A DNA stretch of 62,422 bases, the filler included, from Candidatus Babelota bacterium (GTDB taxonomy: Bacteria; JAGOBX01), in assembly GCA_017999075.1 (NCBI GenBank). It is 8 parts of 8 records of this genome, joined end to end, with 100 filler letters (N's around TTAATTAATTAA, not from the genome) between each part and the next. Parts side by side here need not be neighbours in the genome. Positions count along the whole stretch, not along the records: positions 57,264 to 62,422 come from JAGOBX010000295.1; 7 more parts are not named here. One strand, written 5' to 3'. The notes beneath the pieces were generated by a model. That model saw nothing but the letters and a program-made list of their open reading frames with translations. It searched no databases and was not told the origin of the DNA. This document shows, in pieces, positions 19,806 through 62,422 of the stretch (positions are counted from its first letter, which is position 1; each line of letters starts with the position of its first letter). The position numbers were made by a program, and so were the translations under genes.

Positions 19806-20711
19806 TTAAAAATTATATTTTATACCTAATATATGGCAGTCGGACAATTCTTTTCCCATTACATAAGCGTAATCAAAATTAAATTTATATAAGTTAAGTC
19901 CAAGTCCGCAATAAATATTTTTATCAAAATCATCGTCATAACTGTTATATCCGGCTCGTACAAATATCATTCTGTCATAATTCAGTTCAGTTCCAAACGA
20001 GACAGAAGCATCTTCATTTCTCACTTTTACTACATCTACTGAAACCAATAGGCTCTGATTTTTAAAAGAAATTCCGCTTCTGATAGTAAACGGCAATTTA
20101 TTTTCTTGAGATTCAAATTTCAGTTTTTGTCCTAAATTCTGTAATGAAATACCAAAACTGACTTCTTCAGAACAAAGCAGTTTTATACCGGCATCAGCTG
20201 CAATACCTGATGCAGAACTGTCGTCTATTTTCTGTTTAATATATTTTCCTGTAAACCCCATTGCAAACTTGTTTTCAGGTTTCATTGTCCAGGTTAAACT
20301 CATAGCAGAATCAGTTGACTTATAATCGCCTGTTCTGTTTCCCAATAAATCTCTACCTTCAATTTCTCCTGAATTCAAATGATATACTGCTATCCCTATA
20401 TAATTTTTATCAATTATTTTAGCCGCATATCCGGCATAATCATAAGCAACGTCTTCAATCCATTCATTATGCTGTATTGTCAATTCCGATTTGTCTATAA
20501 AAGCTATACCAGCAGGGTTCCAGTATAATCCGTAAACGTCTTCTGCAGCTGCAGTATAAGCTCCGCCCAAACTTACAGGTTTTGCTCCTACTCCTATCTG
20601 AAGAAATTGCGCGCCTGTGGTCCCGCTTCCAGCGCAATATCCTGATGTTTGAAAAACAAAAAAAACAGCAGTAATTAATATCATTGAATATAACGTTTTT
20701 TTAATTTTCAT
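19806..20711 (-). CDS. PorV/PorQ-family outer-membrane beta-barrel
   Basis: Signal peptide; AQFLQIGVGAKPVSLGGAYTAAAEDVYGLYWNPAGI; FDYAY; ends in YNF (C-terminal Phe). Confidence 0.85.
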   Translation of the reverse strand: MKIKKTLYSMILITAVFFVFQTSGYCAGSGTTGAQFLQIGVGAKPVSLGGAYTAAAEDVYGLYWNPAGIAFIDKSELTIQHNEWIEDVAYDYAGYAAKIIDKNYIGIAVYHLNSGEIEGRDLLGNRTGDYKSTDSAMSLTWTMKPENKFAMGFTGKYIKQKIDDSSASGIAADAGIKLLCSEEVSFGISLQNLGQKLKFESQENKLPFTIRSGISFKNQSLLVSVDVVKVRNEDASVSFGTELNYDRMIFVRAGYNSYDDDFDKNIYCGLGLNLYKFNFDYAYVMGKELSDCHILGIKYNF

Positions 20712-20781
20712 ATAATTTTCCAAAACTAATTTTTGTTTGCATTATTTCATTCTATCTATAGTAAATATAAATGCAAATATT

Positions 20782-23700
20782 TTATTTTATAATACCTATT
20801 TTACCTATTTTTTCTCCACCTGAATATATCAGTTTATAAATATATACGCCGCTTGCAATTTCTTCACTTTTCATATTTTGCAAATTCCATTCAAGTTCAA
20901 TTCCTGCATCGCCATAAAACTCATAAACTTTTCTTCCTGCCAAATTATATATCAGAAGTTCAACGTATCCTGAAACTCCATTAAAAATAACTTTACCGGT
21001 TCCATATCTTTGCCTGTATGGATTCGGAAATACATAAAACCCAGTATCTGCCCCTGAACCATATTTAGGAGCTGCAACCGAATAATATGAAAAATGAAGT
21101 AATTCGGCTTTAACAGATTTAGAAACAGGATCACTATAATTCAACCCGTCGCTTACAACTTCCCATTTATTAGTAGATTCATTAAACCTGTACATTTTTA
21201 ATTTTGAACATTCTATTCCTGTATTATCCTCAAAACCGTTATTATCATTATCTGAATACGGAATTTCCACTGTAATCATTTTTTCAAATTCCTGATTTAC
21301 AACAGCTTCTGTCAATATGTTTTTAACATCAAATTTTCTTAAACTTCCGTTCAATACCTGTAAATTCCCAAACCCTGATGATTTAACTTTTTCAAACTCA
21401 GTTTCGTTTTCTGATTCTTTCAAAATGTCTATAAACACGCTGTCTTGTAATATATCAGCAGGTATCTGCATAACAGTATTGTTATAAGAATATATATTCT
21501 CTTTTTTTACATTCAGCATAACTCTAACATATTTTGTAGATACATTTCCGAATTCATCTACAAATTTTATCGCATTTAATCCGCATTTTGTCAATTTAAT
21601 AAAATTCGAATACTGCGATGATAATTTAATATTAGTTTTTGGAGCATCTTCAATTTGTTCAACAAAAATCTGAATGTTAGAACTGCACGAAATAATATTA
21701 CTGAATTCATCAGTATAATAAATCGTGTATTGAATCTCATCTCCTAAAAATGCAATATCTTCAGACACATTAATAACAATGTTTTTCTTTATTCCAGGGT
21801 TAATTTTTACAGATGCATTTTTTTGAAACCCTGCAAATTCAGATGTTATATAAACAGTCTGATTTTTAGTATATCTCGTTTCAAACTCCGTTCTCCCTGA
21901 TTCTGATATGTTTTTTTCAATGTCAATTACCCCTGATGCATCAGAAAATCTTATTTTCACTTTTCTGTCTTGTTCAGGAACATATTTAAAATAATCTAAT
22001 CTTTTCAAATTTAATGCTGCTAAAGTTATATATAATGTTTCTCCTGCATTAATCTGTTCAGGAACTGTAAGAGCTATATTCCCGATTAAACTATAATCAT
22101 TTATCACATTTATAAAAAATTCAGATTTAATCCCTGCTCTAACTGTTTCAAGTTTTACAGACAACCCTGCTATTTTATCCAGTTTTCTTAGTTCAAATAT
22201 AATTTTACCCGCGTTATCTGTAATCAGATTCATATATTTTGAATCATTGATAAACTCCGCTTCACCTGAAATTTCCAGTTTCACTGTTTCTCCTGAAAGA
22301 GCATTTCCATTAGAATCTTTAACTATGGCTGACAATATTATTGTATCGAATAATCCCGCATTTATTTGAACATCATTCGGTATTTTGACAAAAGTATACG
22401 GTTCAGGAATTAATTCAGGAAAAATTATCACTGTATCATTTCCTGATTGCGAACCGGTATCAGCATTATTATTTGCAGGCGCGCTTCTTGATAAAACAAC
22501 TGATTTAACAGGACTTTCATTGTTTCCGATATCTATGACGCTTATATCAATATAATATGTTACGTATGCATCAAGATTATTCAGGTTTAACAATGACGAA
22601 GATCTGATTCCCAATTCTGTTTTTTCAGAGGTTGTTAAAATTATTCCTGTATCTGACAAATTTGTTCTATATCTTATTTTATAAGTTTTAAAATCCTGTT
22701 CCTGAGATGGGGTCCAATTCAATATTGCATAATTTGAATAATCAGAAACTGCGAATTCGGAAACTGCAGCAGGAAGCATATCATTTTGAGGAACTGAAGA
22801 AGTATCAGACTCTTGTCTAACTAATACTTTTATTGTATCAGAGAGCACGCTCTCATTTCCTACTATATCAGTTGCCGAAACTGCAAAATAATATTCCGTA
22901 TTTGATGTCAACCCTGTAATCATAGTTTGACAATTATTTTTCTGACGCAAATTATTATCATTTGATACTGACCATTTTTTATAAGCAGGTGTTATAACCG
23001 GCGAAGTATTATAATAAATCGAATAATAATTGAAATCTTCTGATTGAACAGGATTTAATGATAATGTTACGCTATTCTCATTTTTTGAAATCAATGAAGG
23101 GTAAGTCATCTTTTCAGGAGACTGGTTATCTATTATAACTGACCAGTTATTAGTTGCTGAATATTTAAAAATCATTGATTCTACTTTTATAACAAAATTC
23201 AAAATACAAGAATTCTCAGGTTTAGGAATAACAGCTTTAAATCTATTGCCGTATCCTGAAACAGCATTAACCGAAATTTCCAGACAATCTTCAATATCTA
23301 TAATATCGGAATTAATTTTATAAAGCAATTTTATATTTTCAATATTTGAAGGAATAGTGTCAGCAGTGAATACTACAATTATATCACTGTCTTTCAAATA
23401 TGCATCAGAACTGAAATCAATTACTGTATTAGTTCCTTCTGTAATATAATTAACAAAAATATTTTTAACATTGGTTTTTCCAGAATCATTTTGATTACTC
23501 TGAATTCCATTTATTAAACCCATATATTTTACAGTGTTGTTTGATGTGCTCAGTTTTATTTTTCCATGATTTGATTTGTCAGCAAATACAAAAACTTCTA
23601 CAGAACCATAATCATCAGTAATTCCAGAAAATACTATTTTATTATCTATAAGCGTTTCTCCGTCTTCAACTCTTATTTCTATATTTTCTCCTGATACAGC

Positions 23701-25524
23701 TATTCCTGAAGCATCTCTTGCAACTGCTGTAAGTTTAAATGAATTATTCGAACTTATATCTACTGTATCTCCTGAAACCAACTCTATTTTTGAAACAGCG
23801 CCTGCAGTTTTTCTTATAAGTTTAGCTTTTTTTACAGGGCTTTCATTTCCTGTTTTATCAACTGAACATATTTCAAAATAATAATTTGAAGACGCATCTA
23901 GATTCCGGATAAGCAGCAATGAACTTGATAATGTTCCAAGAATAGATTCACTGTTTCTGTCCAAAGTAAAAATCTGGCTGTTGTAAAAATCTTTGGAATA
24001 ACGAATTTTGTATGTATTGAAATCAGCCGATGAAACAGGAGTCCAGAACAAATAAGCGCTGGAACTTCTATCATATAAAGTTAATGATTGAACCTGAGCA
24101 GGAGCTTCAGCGTCTATAATATATTTAAAAGTTGCTCCATCTTTATTTGTGAATATTGTATTATTTATTTCAAAAATATATTCGACAAGAGTTCCATTAA
24201 CCATTTCATTATCAGAAACCGGTATAACGCATTCCCATGTTTTTCGGGCATTCCCGTCAATGCAATACATTTCAACATACCTGTCCTCATCGTTTTCTAA
24301 TGATTTTCCATCAGGTCTTTTTCCGGCATCATACCATAAATATACTTTATCTCCTGTTTTAACCGCATATTCGAATTCTGTAGTTACTGTAATGTCTTTC
24401 CTCAATAATTTTTCAGTTCCATCAAGCAAATGAGCTGTATTATACCCGTCTGTAGCAGGATCTTCAGCAGGACGCTGGCTGTTTGTAGTAGTCTGAACGC
24501 TTGTTGTTACAAGACTTAAATTTCCTGACAAATCTTTAGTTATTACGCTGAACGTATAATTTTCATTGGGCAGTAACCCTCTAACAGCGCTTATAGATGT
24601 ATATCTATTTTTCAAGTTGGGATCTTTCAAGTATGTCCATTGCGAATCTGATGAAGTTACTGCTCCGCCTATTTGATAAACCACTATATACTCGCTAAAA
24701 TCATCCATGTCATATCTTGGAAGCCAGCTTATATGAACAGTAGTAGTTGAATCTGACATTTTTGACGCATTGACGCTTGTTATATCAAAATTATTTGAAT
24801 TGTCCATCTTAATCTGCCATGGTTCATCATATAAATTTCTGTATATCAATCCGCCGTCGCATTCAAAAATAAATTTTATTACATCTCCATCGCTTATTTT
24901 CAAATCCGCAACATTTAAAATTGCACTCCAGTATCCGTTGTTTAATGAACAATTTATTTTTGTGTCAGACAAATTTCCTATTCCTGCTCCATCAGGTTTT
25001 GCAAAAGTATCAACCCATATAACTGGAGAATATTCAGATGCCGAAGATAATCTGAATTTTATTTCAATATTTTCTTTTTTAATTCTATTTATCTGCTCAA
25101 AATCAGTTATAATACTGCCTGATACTCCTGTTGCAGTAACATCAAGTGCGTATAATGAAGAATTTGTGTATACACTTATAGTATCTGAAAGTTCACTTTC
25201 ATTACCCGCGTCATCTTTTACTGAAACTGCAAAATAATATCTTGTAAAACTTGTTAAATTCATTATTTTTGAATAAGAATTTTTTGCTGTCATCAGATTT
25301 GCGTCATTTACATAATTCCATTTTTTACTTGATTTTGTAACATTTGGAAGTGTATCGTAATATACTGTATACTCTTTAAAATCCGAATTATAATAATACT
25401 TCCACGTTAAATTTACAGAATTTAAAGTTTTGGAAAGTGACGTTAATCCCGTAATTTTCGATGGAGCCTCATTATCAGATGTGTATGACCAGCAAAACGA
25501 ATTATTAAACCTGAAAATCTTGCC
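20782..25524 (-). CDS. Large fibronectin type III / Ig-like repeat protein with T9SS-CTD-like C-terminus, 5'-truncated
   Basis: Repeated LxW..DFxxYxIxY...LxxxTxYYFxVxxxDxxGNES. C-terminus VFPNPY...IYNLAGRKV...WNL...ASGVYIY...GKIGIIK. Frame stays open from the listed start to the contig end. Confidence 0.85.
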   Translation of the reverse strand, partial: GKIFRFNNSFCWSYTSDNEAPSKITGLTSLSKTLNSVNLTWKYYYNSDFKEYTVYYDTLPNVTKSSKKWNYVNDANLMTAKNSYSKIMNLTSFTRYYFAVSVKDDAGNESELSDTISVYTNSSLYALDVTATGVSGSIITDFEQINRIKKENIEIKFRLSSASEYSPVIWVDTFAKPDGAGIGNLSDTKINCSLNNGYWSAILNVADLKISDGDVIKFIFECDGGLIYRNLYDEPWQIKMDNSNNFDITSVNASKMSDSTTTVHISWLPRYDMDDFSEYIVVYQIGGAVTSSDSQWTYLKDPNLKNRYTSISAVRGLLPNENYTFSVITKDLSGNLSLVTTSVQTTTNSQRPAEDPATDGYNTAHLLDGTEKLLRKDITVTTEFEYAVKTGDKVYLWYDAGKRPDGKSLENDEDRYVEMYCIDGNARKTWECVIPVSDNEMVNGTLVEYIFEINNTIFTNKDGATFKYIIDAEAPAQVQSLTLYDRSSSAYLFWTPVSSADFNTYKIRYSKDFYNSQIFTLDRNSESILGTLSSSLLLIRNLDASSNYYFEICSVDKTGNESPVKKAKLIRKTAGAVSKIELVSGDTVDISSNNSFKLTAVARDASGIAVSGENIEIRVEDGETLIDNKIVFSGITDDYGSVEVFVFADKSNHGKIKLSTSNNTVKYMGLINGIQSNQNDSGKTNVKNIFVNYITEGTNTVIDFSSDAYLKDSDIIVVFTADTIPSNIENIKLLYKINSDIIDIEDCLEISVNAVSGYGNRFKAVIPKPENSCILNFVIKVESMIFKYSATNNWSVIIDNQSPEKMTYPSLISKNENSVTLSLNPVQSEDFNYYSIYYNTSPVITPAYKKWSVSNDNNLRQKNNCQTMITGLTSNTEYYFAVSATDIVGNESVLSDTIKVLVRQESDTSSVPQNDMLPAAVSEFAVSDYSNYAILNWTPSQEQDFKTYKIRYRTNLSDTGIILTTSEKTELGIRSSSLLNLNNLDAYVTYYIDISVIDIGNNESPVKSVVLSRSAPANNNADTGSQSGNDTVIIFPELIPEPYTFVKIPNDVQINAGLFDTIILSAIVKDSNGNALSGETVKLEISGEAEFINDSKYMNLITDNAGKIIFELRKLDKIAGLSVKLETVRAGIKSEFFINVINDYSLIGNIALTVPEQINAGETLYITLAALNLKRLDYFKYVPEQDRKVKIRFSDASGVIDIEKNISESGRTEFETRYTKNQTVYITSEFAGFQKNASVKINPGIKKNIVINVSEDIAFLGDEIQYTIYYTDEFSNIISCSSNIQIFVEQIEDAPKTNIKLSSQYSNFIKLTKCGLNAIKFVDEFGNVSTKYVRVMLNVKKENIYSYNNTVMQIPADILQDSVFIDILKESENETEFEKVKSSGFGNLQVLNGSLRKFDVKNILTEAVVNQEFEKMITVEIPYSDNDNNGFEDNTGIECSKLKMYRFNESTNKWEVVSDGLNYSDPVSKSVKAELLHFSYYSVAAPKYGSGADTGFYVFPNPYRQRYGTGKVIFNGVSGYVELLIYNLAGRKVYEFYGDAGIELEWNLQNMKSEEIASGVYIYKLIYSGGEKIGKIGIIK

Positions 25525-25525
25525 G

Positions 25526-25625
25526 NNNNNNNNNNNNNNNNNNNNNNNNNNNNNNNNNNNNNNNNNNNNTTAATTAATTAANNNNNNNNNNNNNNNNNNN
25601 NNNNNNNNNNNNNNNNNNNNNNNNN
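25526..25625. other. Artificial contig linker
   Basis: 44 N + TTAATTAATTAA + 44 N. Confidence 0.98.
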
Positions 25626-41627: not shown

Positions 41628-43409
41628 TCATATTACCCATATATCAGCGTCTTTAAAACTTGGAATTGATTCTGTAACTAATGGCTTAATATGTTTGATT
41701 ATATAATTACGTATTTCATTTGAATCGGACAAAAGTTTTATATCATTGAAAAATGTTTTTGCCTGCTCAAATGTTATATTGGATAAAATTACTTTTGTAT
41801 CTGGTATTGCATTTGATGTCATACTGAAGTTTTTTAACCCCATTCCAAGCAACAATATTGCAGTTATCGGTATTTCTGCCATATCTCCGCAAACAGTTAC
41901 AGGTTTTCCTGAGTTATTGCATATTGATATTGTTTTGTGAATGAGTTCTAAAACAGCAGGGTGCATTCTTTGAAATAAATGATTTACTTTGTCGTTAGTT
42001 CTGTCTACTGCAAGCGTATATTGAATTAAATCGTTTGTTCCGATTGAAATAAAATCCGCATGTTTTAATAATTTTTCAAGAATGATTACAGCTCCGGGTA
42101 TTTCTACCATAATTCCTACTTTAATATTTTTATCATATTCAATTCCTTCTTCGTCAAGCTCATATTTAATTTCTTTTATTAATTCTTTAGTTTTAAGAAT
42201 TTCGGAAACAAAAGCAACCATTGGAATCAATATTTCTGTTTTTCCGTATGCGGAAGCTCTTAATATTGCCCGAAGTTGAGTTTTGAACATAGCTCTGTTT
42301 TCAAGGCAGTACCGTATTGCGCGTAATCCTAAAAATGGATTTGATTCAGGTATTGAATTTGTGGATAATATTATTTTATCTCCGCCAATATCGAAAGTTC
42401 GTATAACTACTGTTTGATTTTCAGGTATTTTTTTGACAATATCCCGATAAATTATGAATTGTTCATTTTCTGAAGGTAATCTGACTTTATCCAAAAAAAT
42501 AAATTCTGTTCTGAATAATCCTATGCCTTCTGCTCCGAATTTAATTACATCGTCTATTTCTTCCGGTATTTCAATGTTTGAAAAAAAGTTAAGCCGTATA
42601 TTATCTTTTGTAAAGCATTCTTTAAGGGATTCTTCAAGAATTTTTTTTTCTGATTCGAAAAATAAATCGCGTTTGACTATGTATGAACTTATAGTTTCGT
42701 CTTCAGGCTGTTGGATTATATTGCCTGAAACTGCATCAAGGATTATAATTTCACCGTCAATAACTTTAGAAAAAAAATCTGAAGCTTCTATTAAACATGG
42801 AACTTTTAAAGCGCGCGCCAATATTGAAGTATGTGAAGTCCTGCCGCCTCTTTCAGTTATAAGTCCTTTGATATTTTTATGAGCAAAATGTAAGGTGTCT
42901 GACGGAAGAAGTTCTTCTGCAACCAATATAATATCGGATTTATCATTTTCAAATTCAACATCATCAAAACTGTCGCTTAGATTCTGAAGAACCCTCCTTC
43001 CAACGTCGTAAATATCGGAAGCTCGCTGCCGCGAAATTTCATTTTCCAAATTTTTAAAGTTTTCATTTATTATCTGCAATGCATCATCAAGTATATATTC
43101 GCAGTTTATTTGTTCGTTTTTGATTCGTTTTATTATTTCGTCGATAAAAAATCTATCCTGCAGCATAAGAAGATGCGCTTCGAAAATTTTAGAATAGTTT
43201 TCCCCGATTTGTTCGTTTATCTGATTTTTTATTTCATTTATCTGATTAAGACTTTTAGTTACTGCTTTATCAAATCTTATTATTTCATCATTTATATCTT
43301 CAGGGAGAATATTATATTGTTTTATTTTTAATTCTTTTCTACGGTATTTTTTTACAAATCCAATTGATATTCCGAAACAAACAGGCTTTGCCTTATATAT
43401 TTTTTCCAA
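41628..43409 (-). CDS. ptsI: PEP-protein phosphotransferase (PTS enzyme I)
   Basis: GGRTSHTSILAR, GIGLFRTEF, RTFDIGGDK, NPFLGLRAIR, SIGTNDLIQY. Confidence 0.96.
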   Translation of the reverse strand: MEKIYKAKPVCFGISIGFVKKYRRKELKIKQYNILPEDINDEIIRFDKAVTKSLNQINEIKNQINEQIGENYSKIFEAHLLMLQDRFFIDEIIKRIKNEQINCEYILDDALQIINENFKNLENEISRQRASDIYDVGRRVLQNLSDSFDDVEFENDKSDIILVAEELLPSDTLHFAHKNIKGLITERGGRTSHTSILARALKVPCLIEASDFFSKVIDGEIIILDAVSGNIIQQPEDETISSYIVKRDLFFESEKKILEESLKECFTKDNIRLNFFSNIEIPEEIDDVIKFGAEGIGLFRTEFIFLDKVRLPSENEQFIIYRDIVKKIPENQTVVIRTFDIGGDKIILSTNSIPESNPFLGLRAIRYCLENRAMFKTQLRAILRASAYGKTEILIPMVAFVSEILKTKELIKEIKYELDEEGIEYDKNIKVGIMVEIPGAVIILEKLLKHADFISIGTNDLIQYTLAVDRTNDKVNHLFQRMHPAVLELIHKTISICNNSGKPVTVCGDMAEIPITAILLLGMGLKNFSMTSNAIPDTKVILSNITFEQAKTFFNDIKLLSDSNEIRNYIIKHIKPLVTESIPSFKDADIWVI

Positions 43410-43411
43410 TT

Positions 43412-43699
43412 TTATTCCTCGTTGAATTTGTTTTCAAATATTTCTTCTATACTTTTTAGCGCTGCTTCAGCATCGGGACCTTTTACTTTAACAGTTAATT
43501 TTGAACCATATGGCGCTGCAAGAGTCATTATTCCGAGTATACTTTTCCCATTTACCTGTAATCCTTCTTTTTCGAAAAATATTTCTGATAAAAATTTACT
43601 GCATGCTTGAACTAGTAAAGAAGCCGGTCTCGCATGCATACCCATTTTGTTTTTTATTTCAAATGTTTTTTCTAATTCAATTATTTCATTTCTTGTCAT
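43412..43699 (-). CDS. ptsH: Phosphocarrier protein HPr
   Basis: GMHARPA (His15), NGKSILGIM (Ser46); AGGAGG RBS. Confidence 0.96.
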   Translation of the reverse strand: MTRNEIIELEKTFEIKNKMGMHARPASLLVQACSKFLSEIFFEKEGLQVNGKSILGIMTLAAPYGSKLTVKVKGPDAEAALKSIEEIFENKFNEE

Positions 43700-43775
43700 T
43701 TTTTTTAGTGTCCTCCTGAATCATTTTATGCGGATATAATGTTTCTATTTATAATTTTTATATATCATATTATTT

Positions 43776-44648
43776 TTAATGCTTATCTCTGTGATCAAGA
43801 ATTGTTACTATATCCGGTTTGTTTATATTTTGTATAAATTCATTAAGCAATGAAGCTGTCATTACAGATCTGTGTTGACGTCCGGTGCATCCTATAGCTA
43901 TTGTAAGATAGGTTTTTCCTTCTTTGAGATAATTCGGCAGCAGAAAAGATATAAAATCAAAAAATTTATTCAAAAATTCTTTTGTGATATTCCAATTAAA
44001 AATATAATCTCTTACTTTTTGATCGTCTCCGTTTAATTCTGCCAGTTCGTCGACATAATAAGGATTTGGTAAAAAACGGACATCTATAAGTAAATCTACA
44101 TTATGCGGTATTCCGTTTTTGAATCCGAATGATACTATATTGACAGTCATTTTTTTTGAGTTTGAACCTGAAACAAATTTGTTCCATAATAATTCTTTTA
44201 AATTTTTTCCGCTGAATTCCGAAGTGTTTAAAACAAGCGTTGCAAGCCCTTTTATTTCCTGAAGAAGTTTTCTCTCTTTTTTTATTCCGTCTAATACATT
44301 TTTTTTTGATAGAGGATGAGGCCGTCTTGTTTCGTTGAACCTGCGCATCAATGTATCGTTGTCTGAGTCTAAAAAAAGTATTTCATAATTTATTGCAAGA
44401 TTGTCGAGCTGCAATAAAGTTTTAACTATATTTTTTGTAAAATTCTTGTCGCGGACATCTACTACGCATGCTGCATTTTTAATTTCCCCTGTGGAAACCT
44501 TTAAAATTTCACCGAATTTTGGCAATAATTCTGTAGGAATATTATCAACACAGAAATATCCGCCGTCTTCAAGACATTTTACAGCAAAACTTTTTCCTGC
44601 TCCAGACATTCCGGTTATAATCAATAATTTATAATGTTTTTTTCTCAC
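43776..44648 (-). CDS. rapZ: RNase adapter RapZ/YvcJ
   Basis: ITGMSGAGKS, CVDNIP, ETRRPHPL, SFGFKNG, DVRFLPNPY, GCTGxxHRSV. Confidence 0.95.
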   Translation of the reverse strand: MRKKHYKLLIITGMSGAGKSFAVKCLEDGGYFCVDNIPTELLPKFGEILKVSTGEIKNAACVVDVRDKNFTKNIVKTLLQLDNLAINYEILFLDSDNDTLMRRFNETRRPHPLSKKNVLDGIKKERKLLQEIKGLATLVLNTSEFSGKNLKELLWNKFVSGSNSKKMTVNIVSFGFKNGIPHNVDLLIDVRFLPNPYYVDELAELNGDDQKVRDYIFNWNITKEFLNKFFDFISFLLPNYLKEGKTYLTIAIGCTGRQHRSVMTASLLNEFIQNINKPDIVTILDHRDKH

Positions 44649-45598
44649 TAATTTTCTTTTCCTTGAATCCAGTTTATCAGTCTTTTATTAAATTCTTTTA
44701 CAGAATAAAATCCCATTTTTTTAGATCTGTAATTCATTGCAGCAACTTCTAAAATTGATGCTAAATTTCTTCCAACTCTTACAGGAATGCATAAAGTCGG
44801 TATATCTGTCCCGAGTATATTTTTTGTGCTTTCAATTAATCCGAGCCTGTCATATTCTTTGTTTTTATCCCAATCTTCTATTTCTATAACAAGATCAAGT
44901 TTCACACTGTCTTTAATAACTCCTACTCCATATAATGTTTTTATATTTATTATTCCTATTCCTCTTATTTCCAGATGATACTTTATAACTTCAGAACCCT
45001 GACCTATCAGTTCATTGTTACGGTTTTTATAAAATTCTACTACATCGTCAGCTATAAATATGTGATTGCGTTTTACAAGCTCTAAAGCGCATTCGCTCTT
45101 GCCGATACCGCTCCTGCCTATTATTAAAATACCTACGCCGCACACCTCGACAAGTTCGCCATGAAAAACTATACGCGGATTCATTTTTACTTCTAATACT
45201 GGAATTATTTTTCTGGTTATATCAGATGCTTTAAACGGGGTGCGAAGAAGAGGTGTTCTGGTTTCTCTGCATTTTGTTACGAAATATTCTGGAGGAACGA
45301 TGTTACGGGTTAGTATTACTGCTGTGTTTTCATATCCGAAAAAATCATCTATAGCCTGATTTTTTTGAGATTCGGATAGGTTTTTAAGATATTCTATTTC
45401 TGTCATTCCGAATACTTGTATTCTGTGTTCAGTGAAATATTTATACCATCCTGCCAATGCTAATCCCGGCCTGTTTATATCTACTGATTCTATTACATTT
45501 CTTAATCCTTCCTTTCCTTCTATGACAGATAATTCTAAGCTTTTTTCATTGATTAATTCTTCAAGCAATACCTTTGATTTTTTGATTATATCGCTCAT
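44648..45598 (-). CDS. hprK: HPr(Ser) kinase/phosphorylase
   Basis: NRPGLALAG, GRSGIGKSECALEL, IADD, LEIRGIGII, GRNLA. Confidence 0.96.
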   Translation of the reverse strand: MSDIIKKSKVLLEELINEKSLELSVIEGKEGLRNVIESVDINRPGLALAGWYKYFTEHRIQVFGMTEIEYLKNLSESQKNQAIDDFFGYENTAVILTRNIVPPEYFVTKCRETRTPLLRTPFKASDITRKIIPVLEVKMNPRIVFHGELVEVCGVGILIIGRSGIGKSECALELVKRNHIFIADDVVEFYKNRNNELIGQGSEVIKYHLEIRGIGIINIKTLYGVGVIKDSVKLDLVIEIEDWDKNKEYDRLGLIESTKNILGTDIPTLCIPVRVGRNLASILEVAAMNYRSKKMGFYSVKEFNKRLINWIQGKEN

Positions 45599-46062
45599 AA
45601 AAACTTTTTATCCTCATTTTTAACCATCTCATAAAATTTTTTCGATGACCCTGCAGTAGTTAATGAAGTTCTTATATAATCAAGTTTTACTATTCTTGAT
45701 ATACGAGCAAGCATATTTATATGATCATTTGGTTTGTCTTCCGGAGAAATCAGTAAAAAGATAAGTTTAACCGGCTCATCATCAAGAGAATCATAATCGT
45801 CTATTCCTTTTTTGTGTCTTCCGACCGCAAGAATCATATTGTCAATATTTTTTGATTTACAATGCGGTAACCCGATACCTTTTCCTATGCCTGTGCTCAT
45901 CATTTCTTCGCGTTTTATTATTTCATTTTTCAAATCATCGATGTTTTCTATAACACCATTTTTTTTTAGCAGATTTAGTAATTCGATTATTACTTCAGAT
46001 TTGGTGTCGGATTTTAAATTCAATTCGATATTTTCCTTTTGTAAAATATCAATTATATTCAT
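45595..46062 (-). CDS. ptsN: PTS EIIA component (Ntr/fructose type)
   Basis: REEMMSTGIGKGIGLPH, SLDDEPVKLIFLL, HINMLARISR. Confidence 0.88.
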   Translation of the reverse strand: MNIIDILQKENIELNLKSDTKSEVIIELLNLLKKNGVIENIDDLKNEIIKREEMMSTGIGKGIGLPHCKSKNIDNMILAVGRHKKGIDDYDSLDDEPVKLIFLLISPEDKPNDHINMLARISRIVKLDYIRTSLTTAGSSKKFYEMVKNEDKKFL

Positions 46063-46110
46063 AATTTCTTTTCTCCCTCAATAAAAATATTTTATACACA
46101 TTTTTTAAAG

Positions 46111-46170
46111 TAAACATAGAATTTACATACGTCTTTTATATTTTTTTTAACATATGTAATTCTATGTTTA
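46111..46170. repeat. Intergenic inverted repeat between hpf and ptsN
   Basis: TAAACATAGAATT-TACATA ... TATGT-AATTCTATGTTTA. Confidence 0.6.
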
Positions 46171-46214
46171 ACTAAATATTAATAATAAATAAAATTTGAT
46201 GACAAAAAATTTTA

Positions 46215-46640
46215 TTACATTTCGATTAATCCGTATTTACCGTCATTTCTCCTGTATAGAACGCTGACTCTATTTGTATTTATATCGTTAAAAGCATAAA
46301 AAGTTAAATGGTTTTCTTTTAAAATCAATATTGCTTCTTCAACTGAAATAGGCTTTAAAAGTTCATTGGTTTTTACAATTATCTGAACATCTCCAACTTT
46401 TATAATGTTCTTTTTTAACGGCTTTGATTCAACTGCAAGCACATCGTCCATAGTTAATATTTCTTTATCTTTTTTTACAGTTTTTTTCTTTTTATTTTTT
46501 TCACGTTCTTTTTTTAAAGCTGCTTCTAATTTTTCAACAACTTCTGTTAAAGCATCAAGCATTCTGTCTTTTGATTCTTTTGTTGTTATATGAATGTTTT
46601 TCTCCATTAAAGATATTTTTACTATGTTATTATCTTTTTT
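46215..46640 (-). CDS. hpf: Long ribosome hibernation promoting factor, 5'-truncated
   Basis: C-terminal KPISVEEAI...FYAF...VSVLYRRNDGKYGLIE; position upstream of ptsN-hprK. Confidence 0.85.
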   Translation of the reverse strand, partial: KKDNNIVKISLMEKNIHITTKESKDRMLDALTEVVEKLEAALKKEREKNKKKKTVKKDKEILTMDDVLAVESKPLKKNIIKVGDVQIIVKTNELLKPISVEEAILILKENHLTFYAFNDINTNRVSVLYRRNDGKYGLIEM

Positions 46641-57263: not shown

Positions 57264-57452
57264 TTCTTTCCCAATAAATCCACATAAAATTACCTCTCAA
57301 TCATTTAACCAGTATTAAGCATTAGCAAAATCTTGGTTTCTGAAGTTTTCGAAATTTCACATAAAAAACAATAGAAAACTTCTAAAAATCCGAACGTATA
57401 GTTCGGATTCAATTACTTATTGACATTTAACCCAATAATTTATCAAAAAAAT

Positions 57453-57786
57453 TTATTTACATTTCAAACACGCTTTTTGCTTTTTTATAGAAGCTTCAAT
57501 AACGCCATCTATACAATCTAAAAATTTCATCACGCATTTTGTCTTAAAGTTTATATAATCCATCAGAATCCATTTTTGTGCTCATACAATTCACGCATTT
57601 TTCAAAACAAGCAAGTGTTTTGATATTATAGATTTCTCACAATCTACAATCAAACAGAGTGAATAACTCTGAAAACAATTGGTCTTTCTCATTAAATTTA
57701 AACACTTCAATTATAATGCACCGCGCCGGATGCGCCATTGTTTTGATTATCTCGTTTCTTACTTTGGCTGATTCATATTTATTCAT
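57453..57786 (-). pseudogene. ArsR/SmtB-family repressor pseudogene (absent from ORF track)
   Basis: MNKYESAKVRNEIIKTMAHPARCIII...FSELFTLFDC, a 7-bp duplication, then EKSIISKHLLVLKNA*IV*AQK...KTKCVMKFLDCIDGVIEASIKKQKACLKCK*. Confidence 0.8.
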
Positions 57787-57824
57787 TTTTTACCTTAACC
57801 GTAAATAATAAACCATTTTATTGT

Positions 57825-57858
57825 TGGCAATTTTACCATTGATTTATAATTTTGTCAA
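57825..57858 (-). promoter_or_regulatory. Sigma70 promoter with overlapping palindrome (likely ArsR operator)
   Basis: Minus strand TTGACA-17nt-TAAAAT; imperfect palindrome TGGTAAAATTGCCA over the -10 element. Confidence 0.6.
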
Positions 57859-58014
57859 GAATTTTTTCTGGTATATTTTTAATAATTTAGATTTTTGATG
57901 TTATTCTTTACCGAAAACAAGTTATATAACAGAAATGTTTCCAAATGGCAGTTCTGCCATTGTGGCAGTTCTGGCATTTTTTGCGAATTTTATATCTGGA
58001 ATATAAAAAAAATA

Positions 58015-58043
58015 TTGACAACATGAATTATTACAATTAATCT
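58015..58043 (+). promoter_or_regulatory. Possible sigma70 promoter for the NCS2 operon
   Basis: TTGACA-17nt-TAATCT about 100 nt upstream of ATG 58142. Confidence 0.45.
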
Positions 58044-58141
58044 GAAAATACCTATTTTAAATTTTTAGATTAAAAATAAATTGTTAAATACGGTTATTAT
58101 TAAAATATTGCAATAATAAAAAAGTTAAGGAGTTATCGGTT

Positions 58142-59854
58142 ATGCCTAAAAAACCTATAAATCTTATATATGGAGTTGATGATAAACCACCTTTTTTTAC
58201 GCTTTTATTATTGGGAATTCAGCATACTTTTGTGTTTTTTATTTCGCTGATACTGCCTTTGATAATAATCAAAGAGCTTGGTGATTCAATAACTCCTGAG
58301 ATTGGCCGCAGTTTTTTAAGTTTATCTTTGATTGCCGGAGGAATCGTTACCATTTTACAGGCAATGCGGGGCAGAATAGGATCAGGTTATTTGTGTTCCG
58401 GGCTTTGCGGACCTTCATATTTAGATTCTTCAAAACAGGCTGCTGCAGCCGGAGGATTGCCTTTGATTTTCGGCATGACAATGATAGCAGGATTGTTTGA
58501 AACATTTTTTTCCAGAATAATGCATAAATTCAAATATCTTTTTCCTACTGAAGTAACCGGAGTAATAGTTACTATGGTAGGTATTGTGGTTATCCCTATT
58601 TCAATAAAAAATTTTTTTGGTGTTACAGATAATAATATTAATATTGATCCTGCCTCAGTAAAAGTTTCTGTAATTACATTACTGGTAATGGCTGCACTGA
58701 GTGTATTTGGAAAGGGTAAAATTAAATTGTTTGGCGCATTGATAGGTATGATAACAGGTTATGCTGCAGCATACTATTTCGGAATATTGACAAACACTCA
58801 TATTCGTTCAATAATTGAAACTGATTTTTTTGATATTCCTGCTGTAAGTCATATAAGATGGGCATTTGATTTTTCAATGATTATTCCGTTTTTTGTGGCA
58901 ACATTGTGTTCGACTTTTAAAACAGTGGGAGATATTGTTACATGTCAGAAAATTAATGATTCGGAATGGCGGAGAGCAGATATGAAATCGCTTTCAGGAG
59001 GGATCCTTGCTGATGGGTTTGGTGGAATTATTCCTGGAATAATAGGCGGTTTCGGTCAATCTACGTCTTCAACCAATATCGGATTATCAGTCGGCACAGC
59101 AGCAACAAGCAGATATATAGCTTTTGTACAAGGTGTTATTTTAATTTTACTCGCTTTTTTTTCTCAGCTTGCTCAGATTTTTTTGATAATGCCTGAACCT
59201 GTTATGGGCGCTACACTTATTTTTTCAGTTGCTTTTATGATAGTTTCAGGCATTCAGATTATAACCTCAAGAATGCTTGATACACGCAAAATTTTTATAA
59301 TAGGAATTTCAATAATTTTGGGATTGAGCGTGGATGCTGTTCCTGGAATATATAACGGAATACATTCTTGGATAAGACCTGTGTTCGGTTCGTCATTGTC
59401 GCTTGCTGCTGTTACAGCTATTTTTCTGAATATTATATTCAGAATAGGAATTTCAAAAGAAAAAAAAATAACTATTGAATCTGGTGAAGATAATTCTGAA
59501 AAAATATCGGAATTTACTGAAGAACAGGGGAAAATATGGGGCGCGCGTTATGAAGTTATTAGAAAATTATCGGTTTCTCTTCAGGAATTTTCAGATGTTT
59601 CTGATTTAATTGAATTAACGGATAATAAAATAAATATTGAAATCAGATATGATGAATTCAATATTGATGCGTATATTTATTACAAAGGAGAAAAATTTGA
59701 ACTGCCGGATAAAAAGCCTGACAAAGAAGAAATAAAAAAAGATTTATCAGCATCCCTTAGATTATCCGGATATTTTATAAAAAATTATGCAGACAACGCA
59801 TCTTTTTCAGAAAAGGACGGATATACTGTCTTACATTTGCATTTTGAACATTAA
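58142..59854 (+). CDS. NCS2 (xanthine/uracil) permease with ~130-aa soluble C-terminal extension
   Basis: YGVDDKPP...LLGIQH, LFPTEVTGVIV, GGILADG, SSTNIGL...TSR, MPEPVMGA; AAGGAG RBS. Confidence 0.9.
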   Translation: MPKKPINLIYGVDDKPPFFTLLLLGIQHTFVFFISLILPLIIIKELGDSITPEIGRSFLSLSLIAGGIVTILQAMRGRIGSGYLCSGLCGPSYLDSSKQAAAAGGLPLIFGMTMIAGLFETFFSRIMHKFKYLFPTEVTGVIVTMVGIVVIPISIKNFFGVTDNNINIDPASVKVSVITLLVMAALSVFGKGKIKLFGALIGMITGYAAAYYFGILTNTHIRSIIETDFFDIPAVSHIRWAFDFSMIIPFFVATLCSTFKTVGDIVTCQKINDSEWRRADMKSLSGGILADGFGGIIPGIIGGFGQSTSSTNIGLSVGTAATSRYIAFVQGVILILLAFFSQLAQIFLIMPEPVMGATLIFSVAFMIVSGIQIITSRMLDTRKIFIIGISIILGLSVDAVPGIYNGIHSWIRPVFGSSLSLAAVTAIFLNIIFRIGISKEKKITIESGEDNSEKISEFTEEQGKIWGARYEVIRKLSVSLQEFSDVSDLIELTDNKINIEIRYDEFNIDAYIYYKGEKFELPDKKPDKEEIKKDLSASLRLSGYFIKNYADNASFSEKDGYTVLHLHFEH

Positions 59855-59881
59855 CAATTATTTTTAAAATTTAAATTTGAT

Positions 59882-61906
59882 ATGTTTAGAACTAAGATAA
59901 TTGTTCTTATAATACTGATTCTGTTGACAAGTTCTATTGGAATAATGGTGTTTACGAATTTTGCAGTCAAAGATTCAGTTAATAATATTACTGAAAATAG
60001 TTCTATAAACTACCTGCATTTGATTAAATTGAATATTGAAAACGAATATAACAGCATTTTGTTTCAGAAAGAATATGCGCTTGCCAGATATAAGGAACAA
60101 TTAAAAAATGTTACCAACCTTGCCATAGAACATATTGATAATTACTGGCAATTGTATAAAAAAGGAAAATATTCCGAAAAAATAGCGAAAGATATGGCCG
60201 CAGAATCATTAAAAAATTTTCGATATGGAAATAACGATTATTTTTTTGCCTATACTCTTGATTTGTTTAATATATCTCATCCGGACTCTAATATATATAA
60301 ACATAATTTATCAGATTATCAGGATGTTAAAGGTAATTATGTAATACGGGAAATGAAAAAAAAATTGACTGAAAATGACAGCGGATACTTATCATTTTGG
60401 TATATTAGACTGGGGGAAACTGAACCGGTAGAAAAATTATGTTATCTGACTTTATATAAAAAATGGAATTGGATGGTAGGGACAGGGGTTTATATAGGAG
60501 ATGTTGTAAAAGATTATGATAAGCGTATGCAGAGTGTAATGGAAGAATTAACCTCAACTTTTTCAAAGATTAAAATAGGAAAGACAGGATACTTTTTTTT
60601 GTTTGATGAAAATAAAAAAATACTGATACATCCTGCGTTTAATGTGAAAAAATTATCTGATTTTAAGAATCCTGATTCTGGATTAGAACATATGGATGAA
60701 CTTATTAAAGCTTCTGAAACTCCGGATAAACCTTATATTTATTATTGTGATAAACCAGGTTTTGAAGGTAAATTTTTAGTAAAATCTTATGTTATAAAAT
60801 TTAAACCTTTAAATTGGTATATATGTTCATCGGTTTATCAGGATGAACTTGATGAGCCTTTGAAAAATATCAGGAATAATCAGATGATTATTACGTTTAT
60901 TATTGTATCTATGAGTATAATAATTTCGTTTTTACTTGTCAACAGAGTTACTAAATCATTGAAAATTTTAACCAATTACGCTACCAAGCTGTCTTCGTCT
61001 GAATTTTCAATGTTATCGAGTATAGATAAAGAAATTATTGGAATCGGAAAAAGCGTTAAAGATGAAGTCAGTGAATTATCTGCAGCTTTTTCTTTTATGA
61101 TTAATTCTTTGAAAAATCATATTGAAAAATTGAAGGAAACAACATCATTGAATGAACGGATAAAAAGTGAATTGAGAATAGCTTCGGAAATACAGAATTC
61201 TATGCTGCCTAATCCGCCTGAAATGACAACTGAAAAATTTGAAATTATGGCGAAAATAATACCTGCCGCAGAAGTAGGAGGAGATTTATATGATTTTTTT
61301 TATATTGACGATAACAGAATATGTTTTTTAATTGGAGATATTTCAGATAAAGGAGTTCCGGCTGCGCTGTTTATGTCTAAAACTAAAACTGCTTTGCGCC
61401 TTATTACTTATTCTGTATATAAATTGAATAATGAAATATCCCCTTCGGAAATACTTAAAGCTCTTAATGCAGAACTTATACAAAATAACGAAATAAAAAT
61501 GTTTGCAACAATGTTTCTTGCGATTTATGATTTGAGAACAGGTAAGTTGGTTTTTTCTAATGCAGGACACAATTTACCAATTATAATATCTTCTCAGATT
61601 GAATTCTTAAAAAAAACTAAGGGTATTCCTTTAGGAATAAAAGATAAAAGTGAATATTCGGATGGTATAATAAATCTTATAAAAGGCGATTGTTTATTGC
61701 TTTATACAGATGGAATAACTGAATCTATGAATAATTTAGAAGATTTTTTCGGAGAAAAAAGATTGTTGGAATTTTTTAACAGTTTGGATTTGAAAAATAA
61801 ATCTTTAAAATTTTTAATAGAAAAATTGCTTGTTTGCGTTAATGATTTTTCTGCTGGATGCGCGCAATCAGATGATATAGCGCTTCTTGCTTTCAGAAGA
61901 ATATGA
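59882..61906 (+). CDS. Membrane sensor PP2C phosphatase (RsbU/SpoIIE family) with Cache and HAMP domains
   Basis: TM, Cache motifs RYGNNDYFF...HP...WNWMVGTGVY and IGKTGYFF...HP, TM, HAMP (DEVSELSAAF); VGGDLYD, IGDISDKG, NAGH, LLYTDGITE, QSDDIA. Confidence 0.93.
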   Translation: MFRTKIIVLIILILLTSSIGIMVFTNFAVKDSVNNITENSSINYLHLIKLNIENEYNSILFQKEYALARYKEQLKNVTNLAIEHIDNYWQLYKKGKYSEKIAKDMAAESLKNFRYGNNDYFFAYTLDLFNISHPDSNIYKHNLSDYQDVKGNYVIREMKKKLTENDSGYLSFWYIRLGETEPVEKLCYLTLYKKWNWMVGTGVYIGDVVKDYDKRMQSVMEELTSTFSKIKIGKTGYFFLFDENKKILIHPAFNVKKLSDFKNPDSGLEHMDELIKASETPDKPYIYYCDKPGFEGKFLVKSYVIKFKPLNWYICSSVYQDELDEPLKNIRNNQMIITFIIVSMSIIISFLLVNRVTKSLKILTNYATKLSSSEFSMLSSIDKEIIGIGKSVKDEVSELSAAFSFMINSLKNHIEKLKETTSLNERIKSELRIASEIQNSMLPNPPEMTTEKFEIMAKIIPAAEVGGDLYDFFYIDDNRICFLIGDISDKGVPAALFMSKTKTALRLITYSVYKLNNEISPSEILKALNAELIQNNEIKMFATMFLAIYDLRTGKLVFSNAGHNLPIIISSQIEFLKKTKGIPLGIKDKSEYSDGIINLIKGDCLLLYTDGITESMNNLEDFFGEKRLLEFFNSLDLKNKSLKFLIEKLLVCVNDFSAGCAQSDDIALLAFRRI

Positions 61907-61927
61907 AAAAAAGGAGTTGGATATAAT

Positions 61928-62269
61928 ATGGAAATTATTGAATATAGAAACGGAGATATTTTGGTTATGAGTTTGACAGGGAAACTTAATTCGTTAACAG
62001 CTGATTATTTTGAAAAAAAATTAATGGATCATTTGGCTTCAGGTTCAAAAAAGATAATTATTGATTTAAAAAAACTTGATTTTTTAAGCAGCAGAGGAAT
62101 AAGAATTTTTTATAAAGCATATGAATTTATTCAAAAATCAAATGATTGCAGAATAGTATTTTCAGAAGTTAATTCTGATATAAAAAAAGTATTTGAACTT
62201 GTTGAACTTGAAAATGATTTTCCTGTTTATCCTGAAGTTGATTCTGCGATAAAAAATGGATTTAATTAA
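61928..62269 (+). CDS. STAS-domain anti-sigma-factor antagonist (RsbV/SpoIIAA-like)
   Basis: LTGKLNS, IIIDLKKLDFLSSRGI (phospho-Ser region), KKVFEL; AGGAG RBS. Confidence 0.92.
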   Translation: MEIIEYRNGDILVMSLTGKLNSLTADYFEKKLMDHLASGSKKIIIDLKKLDFLSSRGIRIFYKAYEFIQKSNDCRIVFSEVNSDIKKVFELVELENDFPVYPEVDSAIKNGFN

Positions 62270-62422
62270 ATATTTATATAAAAAAACAACTAATTCTTCA
62301 GTATTTATTTAAATAAAAAAATTAAAAGTTAAAAAAATTTATCCACTTGACTTTCCTATCAAAAATAAATAAAAATAATATCTTGATAATAAAAGGATTA
62401 AATAAATAATTTAAAATATGCC

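Follow-up and report, generated by a model that had tools for sequence, protein, structure and literature searches.

The closest described systems are the partner switches of Bacillus, SpoIIE/SpoIIAA/SpoIIAB and RsbU/RsbV/RsbW (PDB 1TH8, 1TIL and 6M36; available text of PMC8256260), in which a PP2C phosphatase provides the input, a STAS protein carries the regulated serine and an RsbW-fold partner docks on the serine loop. A STAS phospho-switch that does not involve a sigma factor is known from SypA/SypE, HmpUVW and BtrUVW (PMC8256260), CapK/CapS and VapS (PMC13373217), and SiaABC (PDB 6KKO). According to the available text of the same two papers, these modules control biofilms or motility or have as their output a DNA-binding repressor, a nuclease or a target not yet identified, and neither a transporter output nor a dead-kinase dock is reported for them. 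Here, we describe a locus at the end of a 62,422-nt stretch of DNA (the window) from a Candidatus Babelota bacterium (assembly GCA_017999075.1), where genes for an NCS2-fold permease, a membrane sensor phosphatase and a STAS protein follow each other. The locus shares with the Bacillus switches the PP2C input and the STAS serine, and an RsbW-fold domain is modeled to dock on the serine loop in the same way (S55 here, S58 in SpoIIAA). Unlike in Bacillus, however, a solute carrier bears the RsbW-fold domain as a fusion, the ATP site of this domain is gone, and many loci encode a second, intact kinase as well; sigma factors are not a regular component, and methanogenic archaea commonly have the module. 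On balance, we favor the reading that this is a partner-switching module with a transporter, not a sigma factor, as its output.

The C-terminal tail of the permease was searched alone by sequence against Pfam, NCBIfam and PDB, and nothing meaningful was found; a word-indexed search returned two proteins only. HATPase_c_2 was matched by 12 of 73 tail homologues, although weakly (best E 8e-5), and the second hit in the ESM Atlas (0.94) carried HATPase_c_2 on 15% of its members, which is a lead only. A tail profile run against PDB gave only helical heptad fragments and designed proteins, which we took as chance helix matches. In the AlphaFold2 model of the tail (predicted local distance difference test [pLDDT] score, 95.7), SpoIIAB, RsbW and UsfX were the top structural matches both in Foldseek (E 4e-6) and in VIA-align (best Z 14.0, root mean square deviation 2.5, 118 aligned residues). 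VIA-align Z values were 13.2 to 14.0 for UsfX, Rv1364c, SpoIIAB and RsbW, versus at most 8.5 for histidine kinases, and the modeled tail includes the N-terminal strand and helix of the SpoIIAB-type GHKL fold. Furthermore, a profile of 113 tails aligned end to end with a profile of RsbW-type kinases from related loci (27 of the 31 kinase domains listed; P 96.65%, E 4.8e-10, 131 columns), which in turn aligned to RsbW and SpoIIAB of B. subtilis. These lines of evidence agree with the initial annotation, which had read an RsbW/SpoIIAB-like HATPase domain from tail peptides, all of them present in the translated permease, and had proposed the structural search that recovered the GHKL-like fold.

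The residue mapping pairs E482 of the tail with E46 of SpoIIAB, V486 with N50 and Y514 with the Asp of the DxG motif, of which G516 is kept; the GGLG box reads LRLS at 539 to 542. The tail thus has the fold and the N-box Glu of active anti-sigma kinases and lacks their ATP motifs (V486, Y514, LRLS), and the substitutions of N-box Asn, DxG Asp and GxG that the initial annotation had listed are all there. In 149 aligned distant tail rows, position 514 is Tyr 136 times and Trp 8 times, Asn is outside the six commonest residues at position 486, and the last G-box position, 542, is Gly in only 5 rows. The E, N, D and both G residues are invariant in the 27 neighboring kinase domains. Because the N-box Asn, the DxG Asp and the G-box are lost, the tail is, by GHKL chemistry, very probably unable to bind ATP, in line with the earlier proposal of a catalytically dead domain fused to a transporter. 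We conclude that the tail is almost certainly a SpoIIAB/RsbW-fold pseudokinase with a dead ATP site.

It is very improbable that the tail is instead an atypical but active kinase, or an ATP sensor, for the STAS protein. Such a role would fit the near invariance in the close clade of the Glu that is catalytic in SpoIIAB (E482 is retained in 60 of 64 close classed loci and is Glu in 103 of the 149 distant rows), and no other RsbW-type gene was found in the window or at the related locus L002; however, Asn, Asp and G-box are all lost, a conserved Tyr sits at the Asp position, and a normal kinase is often supplied separately.

As a pseudokinase, the tail could still dock a STAS protein. Modeling of the tail together with the STAS protein, a check that had been suggested beforehand, yielded an interface with a complex score of 0.78, compared to 0.01 for the best of three controls; the mark applied to such scores is reached by 116 of 157 solved pairs and by 2 of 215 mismatched pairs. 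The runs agreed in 100% of contacts (partner pLDDT, 89). The closest modeled contacts join E482, Q481, D485 and L541-F545 to S54/S55 of the STAS protein. S55 aligns with the phosphorylation site S58 of SpoIIAA and is invariant in 44 of 44 STAS sequences, and conservation within the tail is among the highest at interface positions 482, 485 and 541. The placement of two acidic side chains at the serine loop suggests that STAS is released once phosphorylated. In a quick tree, the STAS protein of the window falls in a clade of 16 rows (SH-aLRT 98), drawn from permease loci in six named phyla; loci L003 and L041 each have one STAS of this clade plus one generic STAS. Two points weigh against the docking: the modeled complex may reflect memory of solved RsbW-STAS complexes and shows likeness, not binding by this copy, and the position of E482 is Gln in 37 of the 149 distant rows. 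Taken together, the models make it likely that the tail binds a STAS protein.

The three open reading frames (ORFs) lie on the plus strand, separated by 27 nt between permease and phosphatase and by 21 nt between phosphatase and STAS gene; coordinates are listed in Table 1. Searches in Pfam and NCBIfam assigned residues 21 to 401 of the permease to Xan_ur_permease, the phosphatase to dCache_2 (E 5e-55) and SpoIIE, and the STAS protein to STAS (E 8e-18) and, above cut-off, to TIGR00377; an NCBIfam match to SiaA, of the SiaABC system of PDB 6KKO, was also among the results. The window consists of eight pieces joined by identical spacers (44 N, 12 nt, 44 N), with N runs at 25526, 30814, 36097, 41373, 46641, 51903 and 57164, so that adjacency across spacers is meaningless; seven of the pieces measure about 5.2 kb each and become shorter along the window. 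The last piece (57264-62422; 5,159 bp) holds the locus, with 878 bp upstream and 153 bp downstream as its certain flanks. Since this piece starts at 57264, genes upstream of that position are not proven neighbors. The description of three co-directional genes with these gaps, ending about 150 nt before the contig end and with no standalone kinase gene visible, was thus accurate: searches of the window with hidden Markov models (HMMs) built from related loci found no further PP2C, STAS or RsbW-type match. The closest homologue, at L002 (76% identical), has 10 kb and 7 kb of flank with no kinase gene, and from this we infer that the kinase of this lineage probably has its gene elsewhere in the genome, not just past the contig end. 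A promoter scan did no better than chance (31 matches against 31.7 expected). A 49-amino-acid (aa) ORF at 57637-57786 on the minus strand, divergent from the permease gene and possibly truncated, presumably resembles the start of an ArsR-type regulator.

Table 1. Features of the permease-phosphatase-STAS locus (window coordinates)
Feature	Position	Strand	Remarks
NCS2/SLC23-fold permease with C-terminal RsbW-fold tail	58142..59854	+	570 aa; PF00860 E 2e-54
TM8 substrate-site motif, K260 to D264	58919..58933	+	By alignment to UapA
TM10 signature motif, residues 305-314	59054..59083	+	S309/T311 changed; N312, G314 kept
SpoIIAB/RsbW-fold (HATPase_c_2-like) pseudokinase tail, predicted STAS dock	59450..59851	+	Residues 437-570
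Membrane sensor phosphatase, dCache_2 - linker - SpoIIE/PP2C	59882..61906	+	674 aa
dCache_2 sensor, residues 28-323	59963..60850	+	First module: Y120/H133/K185
SpoIIE/PP2C catalytic domain, residues 476-673	61307..61900	+	PF07228 E 1e-44; acidic motifs present
STAS anti-anti-sigma-type protein	61928..62269	+	113 aa; S55 codon 62090-62092

The tail is a family feature: the top 120 of 719 full-length matches are nearly all 567 to 590 aa long, with 93 to 100% of the query aligned, and a search with the tail alone recovers at least 357 clusters (50% identity). No long fusion forms (999 to 2850 aa) were found at E 1e-30, which is weak evidence. Tail-only proteins (P0129, P0131, P0151 and similar; 110 to 114 aa) all start at a conserved Met equivalent to position 459; real standalone genes and contig-edge calls are not distinguishable among them, and they are not used as evidence here. 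A GTDB scan with a 43-row alignment, which biases toward close relatives, matched 501 stretches, the best 80 of which were surveyed. Linkage was counted with six-frame HMMs from these loci, since length-based ORF picking miscalled GC-rich loci. Within 5 kb of the permease gene, we detected a PP2C gene at 37 of the 80 loci, STAS at 39 (a few of these being STAS domains in larger proteins) and an RsbW-type kinase, as a separate gene or fused to PP2C, at 25. All three were present at 22 loci and any switch gene at 43, so the co-occurrence on which the initial annotation depended does exist. The match density per 100 kb was 8 to 15 for PP2C (0 to 2 kb) and 6 to 13 for STAS (0 to 3 kb), versus 0.4 to 1.4 at 5 to 10 kb, a roughly five- to tenfold drop beyond 5 kb. 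Linkage recurs across the permease tree (78 rows; three truncated or frameshifted loci left out), with 13 state changes; it was seen in ten named phyla and, among archaea, at 13 of 15 loci. Gene orders include permease-PP2C-STAS, STAS-PP2C-kinase-permease, permease-STAS-PP2C-kinase and divergent forms. No switch gene was found at the six untailed NCS2 control loci. Among three distant tailed homologues on plasmids, the one from Thiodictyon lies near genes for STAS, PP2C and kinase.

Several observations weigh against a general coupling of tail and switch. At 37 of the 80 loci, no switch gene lies within 5 kb; of the 44 loci flanked by 4 kb or more on each side, 23 have at least one switch gene within 4 kb and 21 have none. 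The plasmid-borne homologues of Azospirillum and Pseudoroseomonas do not have switch genes nearby, and the six controls are few, hand-picked from 27 matches in a plasmid collection and not taxon-matched. At unlinked loci, the tails are farther from the family consensus relative to the membrane domain (tail/membrane domain ratio, 0.68 versus 0.80), but this drift is modest, holds in 10 of 13 pairs chosen by hand and does not single out the interface; the rows are interdependent and linked ones dominate the consensus, so that the drift counts as weak support. The unlinked half of the loci, the possible memory behind the docking result and the dimeric state of the RsbW fold in solved structures would all fit a tail that is the relic of an old gene fusion, kept as a dimerization or stability domain and no longer binding STAS, with the linkage as inherited synteny. 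We consider this improbable, since the linkage outlasts rearranged gene orders, sensor exchange and the separation of both domains of life, the modeled interface positions (482, 485, 541) are among the most conserved in the tail, and a dedicated STAS clade exists.

Several neighborhoods have further features. In Thiodictyon, the 3' end of the neighboring tailed permease recurs as a truncated, degenerate copy (L084:4502-5023, minus strand) directly upstream of genes for a STAS-binding protein, PP2C and kinase, with two intact tailed permeases nearby. Tandem tailed permeases, possibly forming heterodimers, stand beside an ABC cassette and a STAS-fusion protein at L057:9158-12686 and L080:9998-13533. 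A 414-aa Schlafen/AlbA_2 protein is encoded after the permease cassette at L003:13508-14749 and L009:6945-8186.

The phosphatase has a catalytic domain with the metal-binding acidic motifs of PP2C enzymes, and a HAMP domain was found in the linker of its homologues at L005, L034 and L075. The closest solved relatives of its sensor are single-Cache domains, led by PscD (E 8e-18). According to the available text of PMC5062169, PscD binds acetate, glycolate and propionate, and its residues Y90, H103 and K156 are critical; the residues of the first dCache_2 module given in Table 1 are their equivalents. This triad is present in every one of the 12 dCache_2 phosphatases compared, two split ORFs being excluded. 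The purine or pyrimidine ligand that had been envisaged for the Cache domains is therefore not favored, PscD being the nearest relative and its carboxylate residues being kept. Many other loci have a 5TM-5TMR_LYT sensor instead, including all archaeal phosphatases scanned. Of the BtsS residues R72, R99, C110 and S113 (PMC10653868, available text), R72 and R99 are kept in 20 of 20 of these 5TMR-LYT domains and C110 in 18. In summary, two unrelated sensor folds appear, from their residues, to point to small monocarboxylates. Against this stand the loss of the fourth hydrogen-bonding residue of PscD, Y143 (Phe here), the presence of BtsS S113 in only 1 of the 20 domains, and other sensors on linked phosphatases (dCache_1 at L063 and L067, GAF at L080). 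Moreover, the motif that contains R72 is conserved throughout the 5TMR family (PMC11109136, available text), and R72 thus names no ligand. At L023:5694-10058, the permease gene is followed by a dCache_2 histidine kinase gene, and at L037:10001-12914 by a dCache_2 ORF; both have a PAS-GGDEF gene before and no PP2C or STAS gene there, and the sensor was kept while the output changed.

The permease scores above the PF00860 cut-off, and its full-length model matches UraA, UapA and SVCT1. Its best NCBIfam match was pbuX, the scores for both pbuX and TIGR00801 being below cut-off. Nucleobase carriers of this fold make two main contacts to the base, by a Glu in transmembrane segment 8 (TM8) and a Gln or Glu in TM10, with a TM10 Phe as the stacking residue, and the TM8 motif of NAT carriers is defined as Glu-x-x-Gly-Asp (PMC5972032, available text). 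Compared to UapA, the permease has Lys instead of the TM8 Glu (K260), Ser instead of the TM10 Phe (S309) and Thr instead of the TM10 Gln (T311), while Q27-H28 in TM1, D264, N312 and G314 are kept. K260 was found in 64 of 64 classed loci and S309 in 62, with Ser, Thr, Ala or Gly at position 311, whereas all six untailed controls carry the Glu, Phe and Gln contacts. K260 lay outside the patterns used to find the loci, and D264 lay inside them. TM1 QH, D264 and N312 are conserved, unlinked loci included. Serine-rich TM10 motifs are described for ascorbate carriers, and purine transport was lost in a UapA mutant in which SSS replaced TFA (both in the available text of PMC5972032).

The initial annotation had proposed nucleobase uptake. 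With all three contacts lost, this is probably wrong: judging by the pocket residues, the permease is NCS2 by fold and not a canonical nucleobase carrier. The Lys in TM8 would suit an anion, and a small carboxylate is the cargo we favor, by a narrow preference. Genes for acyl-CoA synthetase or CoA-transferase flank L001, L027, L045, L054, L056, L071 and L074. Against a carboxylate speak the three distant tailed homologues on plasmids, all without K260, a distant branch with other pocket residues, and nucleotide-related neighbors: L002 has PurH and a YfiH-like gene beside it, L009 adenosine kinase, L059 XdhC, L049 OMP decarboxylase and L001 guaD/PuuD. The same STAS-gated design with a nucleobase or purine-derived cargo would be in line with these neighbors, with the NCS2 fold and with the sub-cut-off pbuX match. 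It seems unlikely to us, given the replacement of every nucleobase contact, the carboxylate type of the sensors, and the fact that purine/pyrimidine genes flank five of the six untailed controls and only scattered tailed loci.

These data can be combined as follows. The membrane PP2C would sense a small external monocarboxylate and would oppose an ordinary RsbW-type kinase, the two setting the phosphorylation of STAS S55; the kinase, in the operon in many genomes, is probably located elsewhere in this one. Unphosphorylated STAS would bind to the tail via the old kinase-substrate surface, with E482 and D/E485 on the serine loop, and a phosphate there should release it. The tail follows TM14 in the full-length model; TM14 presumably belongs to the gate domain, as in UraA, and the tail is presumably cytoplasmic. 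Bound STAS may alter the cycle of the NCS2-fold carrier, the cargo of which would be a small non-aromatic anion, not a nucleobase; pyruvate, acetate or another C2-C4 monocarboxylate is probable. That STAS binding regulates transport is a reasonable expectation, for which we see fair grounds. As to the sign, GlnK, the uridylylated PII protein, inhibits AmtB, and by analogy we lean toward bound STAS inhibiting uptake at high external acid. Inhibition is favored because the unlinked homologues keep the transport site while their tails drift. Activation of uptake by bound STAS, following the logic of BtsSR-BtsT, appears less likely.

Conversely, the permease might act as a transceptor or sink, its occupancy or flux changing the grip of the tail on STAS and thereby the free STAS pool and another output, which in bacteria would be a sigma factor via the intact kinase. 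The intact anti-sigma-type kinase co-encoded at 25 of 80 loci agrees with this, as do several loci among signaling genes (GGDEF, histidine kinases and, seen near L003 and L079 only among the surveyed loci, an ECF sigma factor gene); the replaced TM8 Glu could mean binding without transport. However, the operons already have their own membrane sensor, and the transport residues TM1 QH, D264 and N312 are conserved also at unlinked loci. To our knowledge, archaea lack sigma factors, and yet nearly all of their loci are linked. We therefore regard the transceptor as a rather unlikely alternative to STAS-gated transport.

Two further gene clusters of the window lie on different pieces. A 4,847-aa VWA/FlgD-Ig/CHU_C protein (5234-19777, minus strand), beside a PorV-like gene, forms a cluster of large surface proteins with an Ig/fn3 protein (19806-25293, minus strand). 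Genes for phosphotransferase system (PTS) EI, RapZ, HPr kinase, EIIA and a ribosome hibernation factor are located at 41628-46607 (minus strand).

The tailed transporters constitute a group that is widespread in bacteria and archaea, conserved and, apparently, undescribed. Targeted searches of the open literature, with subscription journals and supplements outside their scope, found no description of this architecture among the matches listed, and a search combining methanogens with Rsb terms listed nothing on methanogens. Fusions of 5TMR with SpoIIE in archaea were noted before (PMC11109136, available text), and the NAT/NCS2-hound paper lists clusters of unknown function, the tail being unmentioned in its available text; its supplements may include these proteins. 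If our reading is correct, partner switches, for which the targets are often unknown once sigma-factor systems are set aside (PMC8256260, available text), would gain a concrete non-transcriptional output, and Rsb-like genes a function in archaea, for example in the sigma-less methanogens Methanothrix and Methanoculleus. The cargo of a large family labeled "xanthine permease" in databases is probably a different one; carboxylates are a possibility in syntrophs, sulfate reducers and methanogens. Since tail and STAS are small, soluble and partly from cultured isolates, the core claim is directly testable. In its most specific form, transporter control in both domains of life by an anti-sigma fold that serves as a phospho-serine-reading dock on an SLC23-type carrier and gates monocarboxylate (pyruvate/acetate) flux, the proposal is tentative.

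Among known carriers, UraA, UapA, XanP/XanQ and SVCT1/2 share with the permease the 14-TM fold, the TM1 QH and the TM10 N-x-G, and the ascorbate carriers SVCT1/2 also the serine-rich TM10 motif. Unlike the NCS2/NAT carriers, the permease has the Lys, Ser and Ser/Thr replacements in TM8 and TM10 and a 134-aa tail that is absent from the six untailed controls. In BtsS/BtsR/BtsT, a 5TMR-LYT monocarboxylate sensor is likewise coupled to a transporter, but BtsSR acts on transcription (PMC10653868, available text). In AmtB-GlnK, a small covalently modified protein gates a transporter; here, this part would be taken by a Ser-phosphorylated STAS protein and a pseudokinase dock. Finally, SLC26/SulP carriers belong to the same transporter fold superfamily and have a STAS domain under the membrane domain, fused in cis. 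The locus described here, if read correctly, mirrors this arrangement: the STAS protein is free and phosphorylatable, and the carrier bears its partner.

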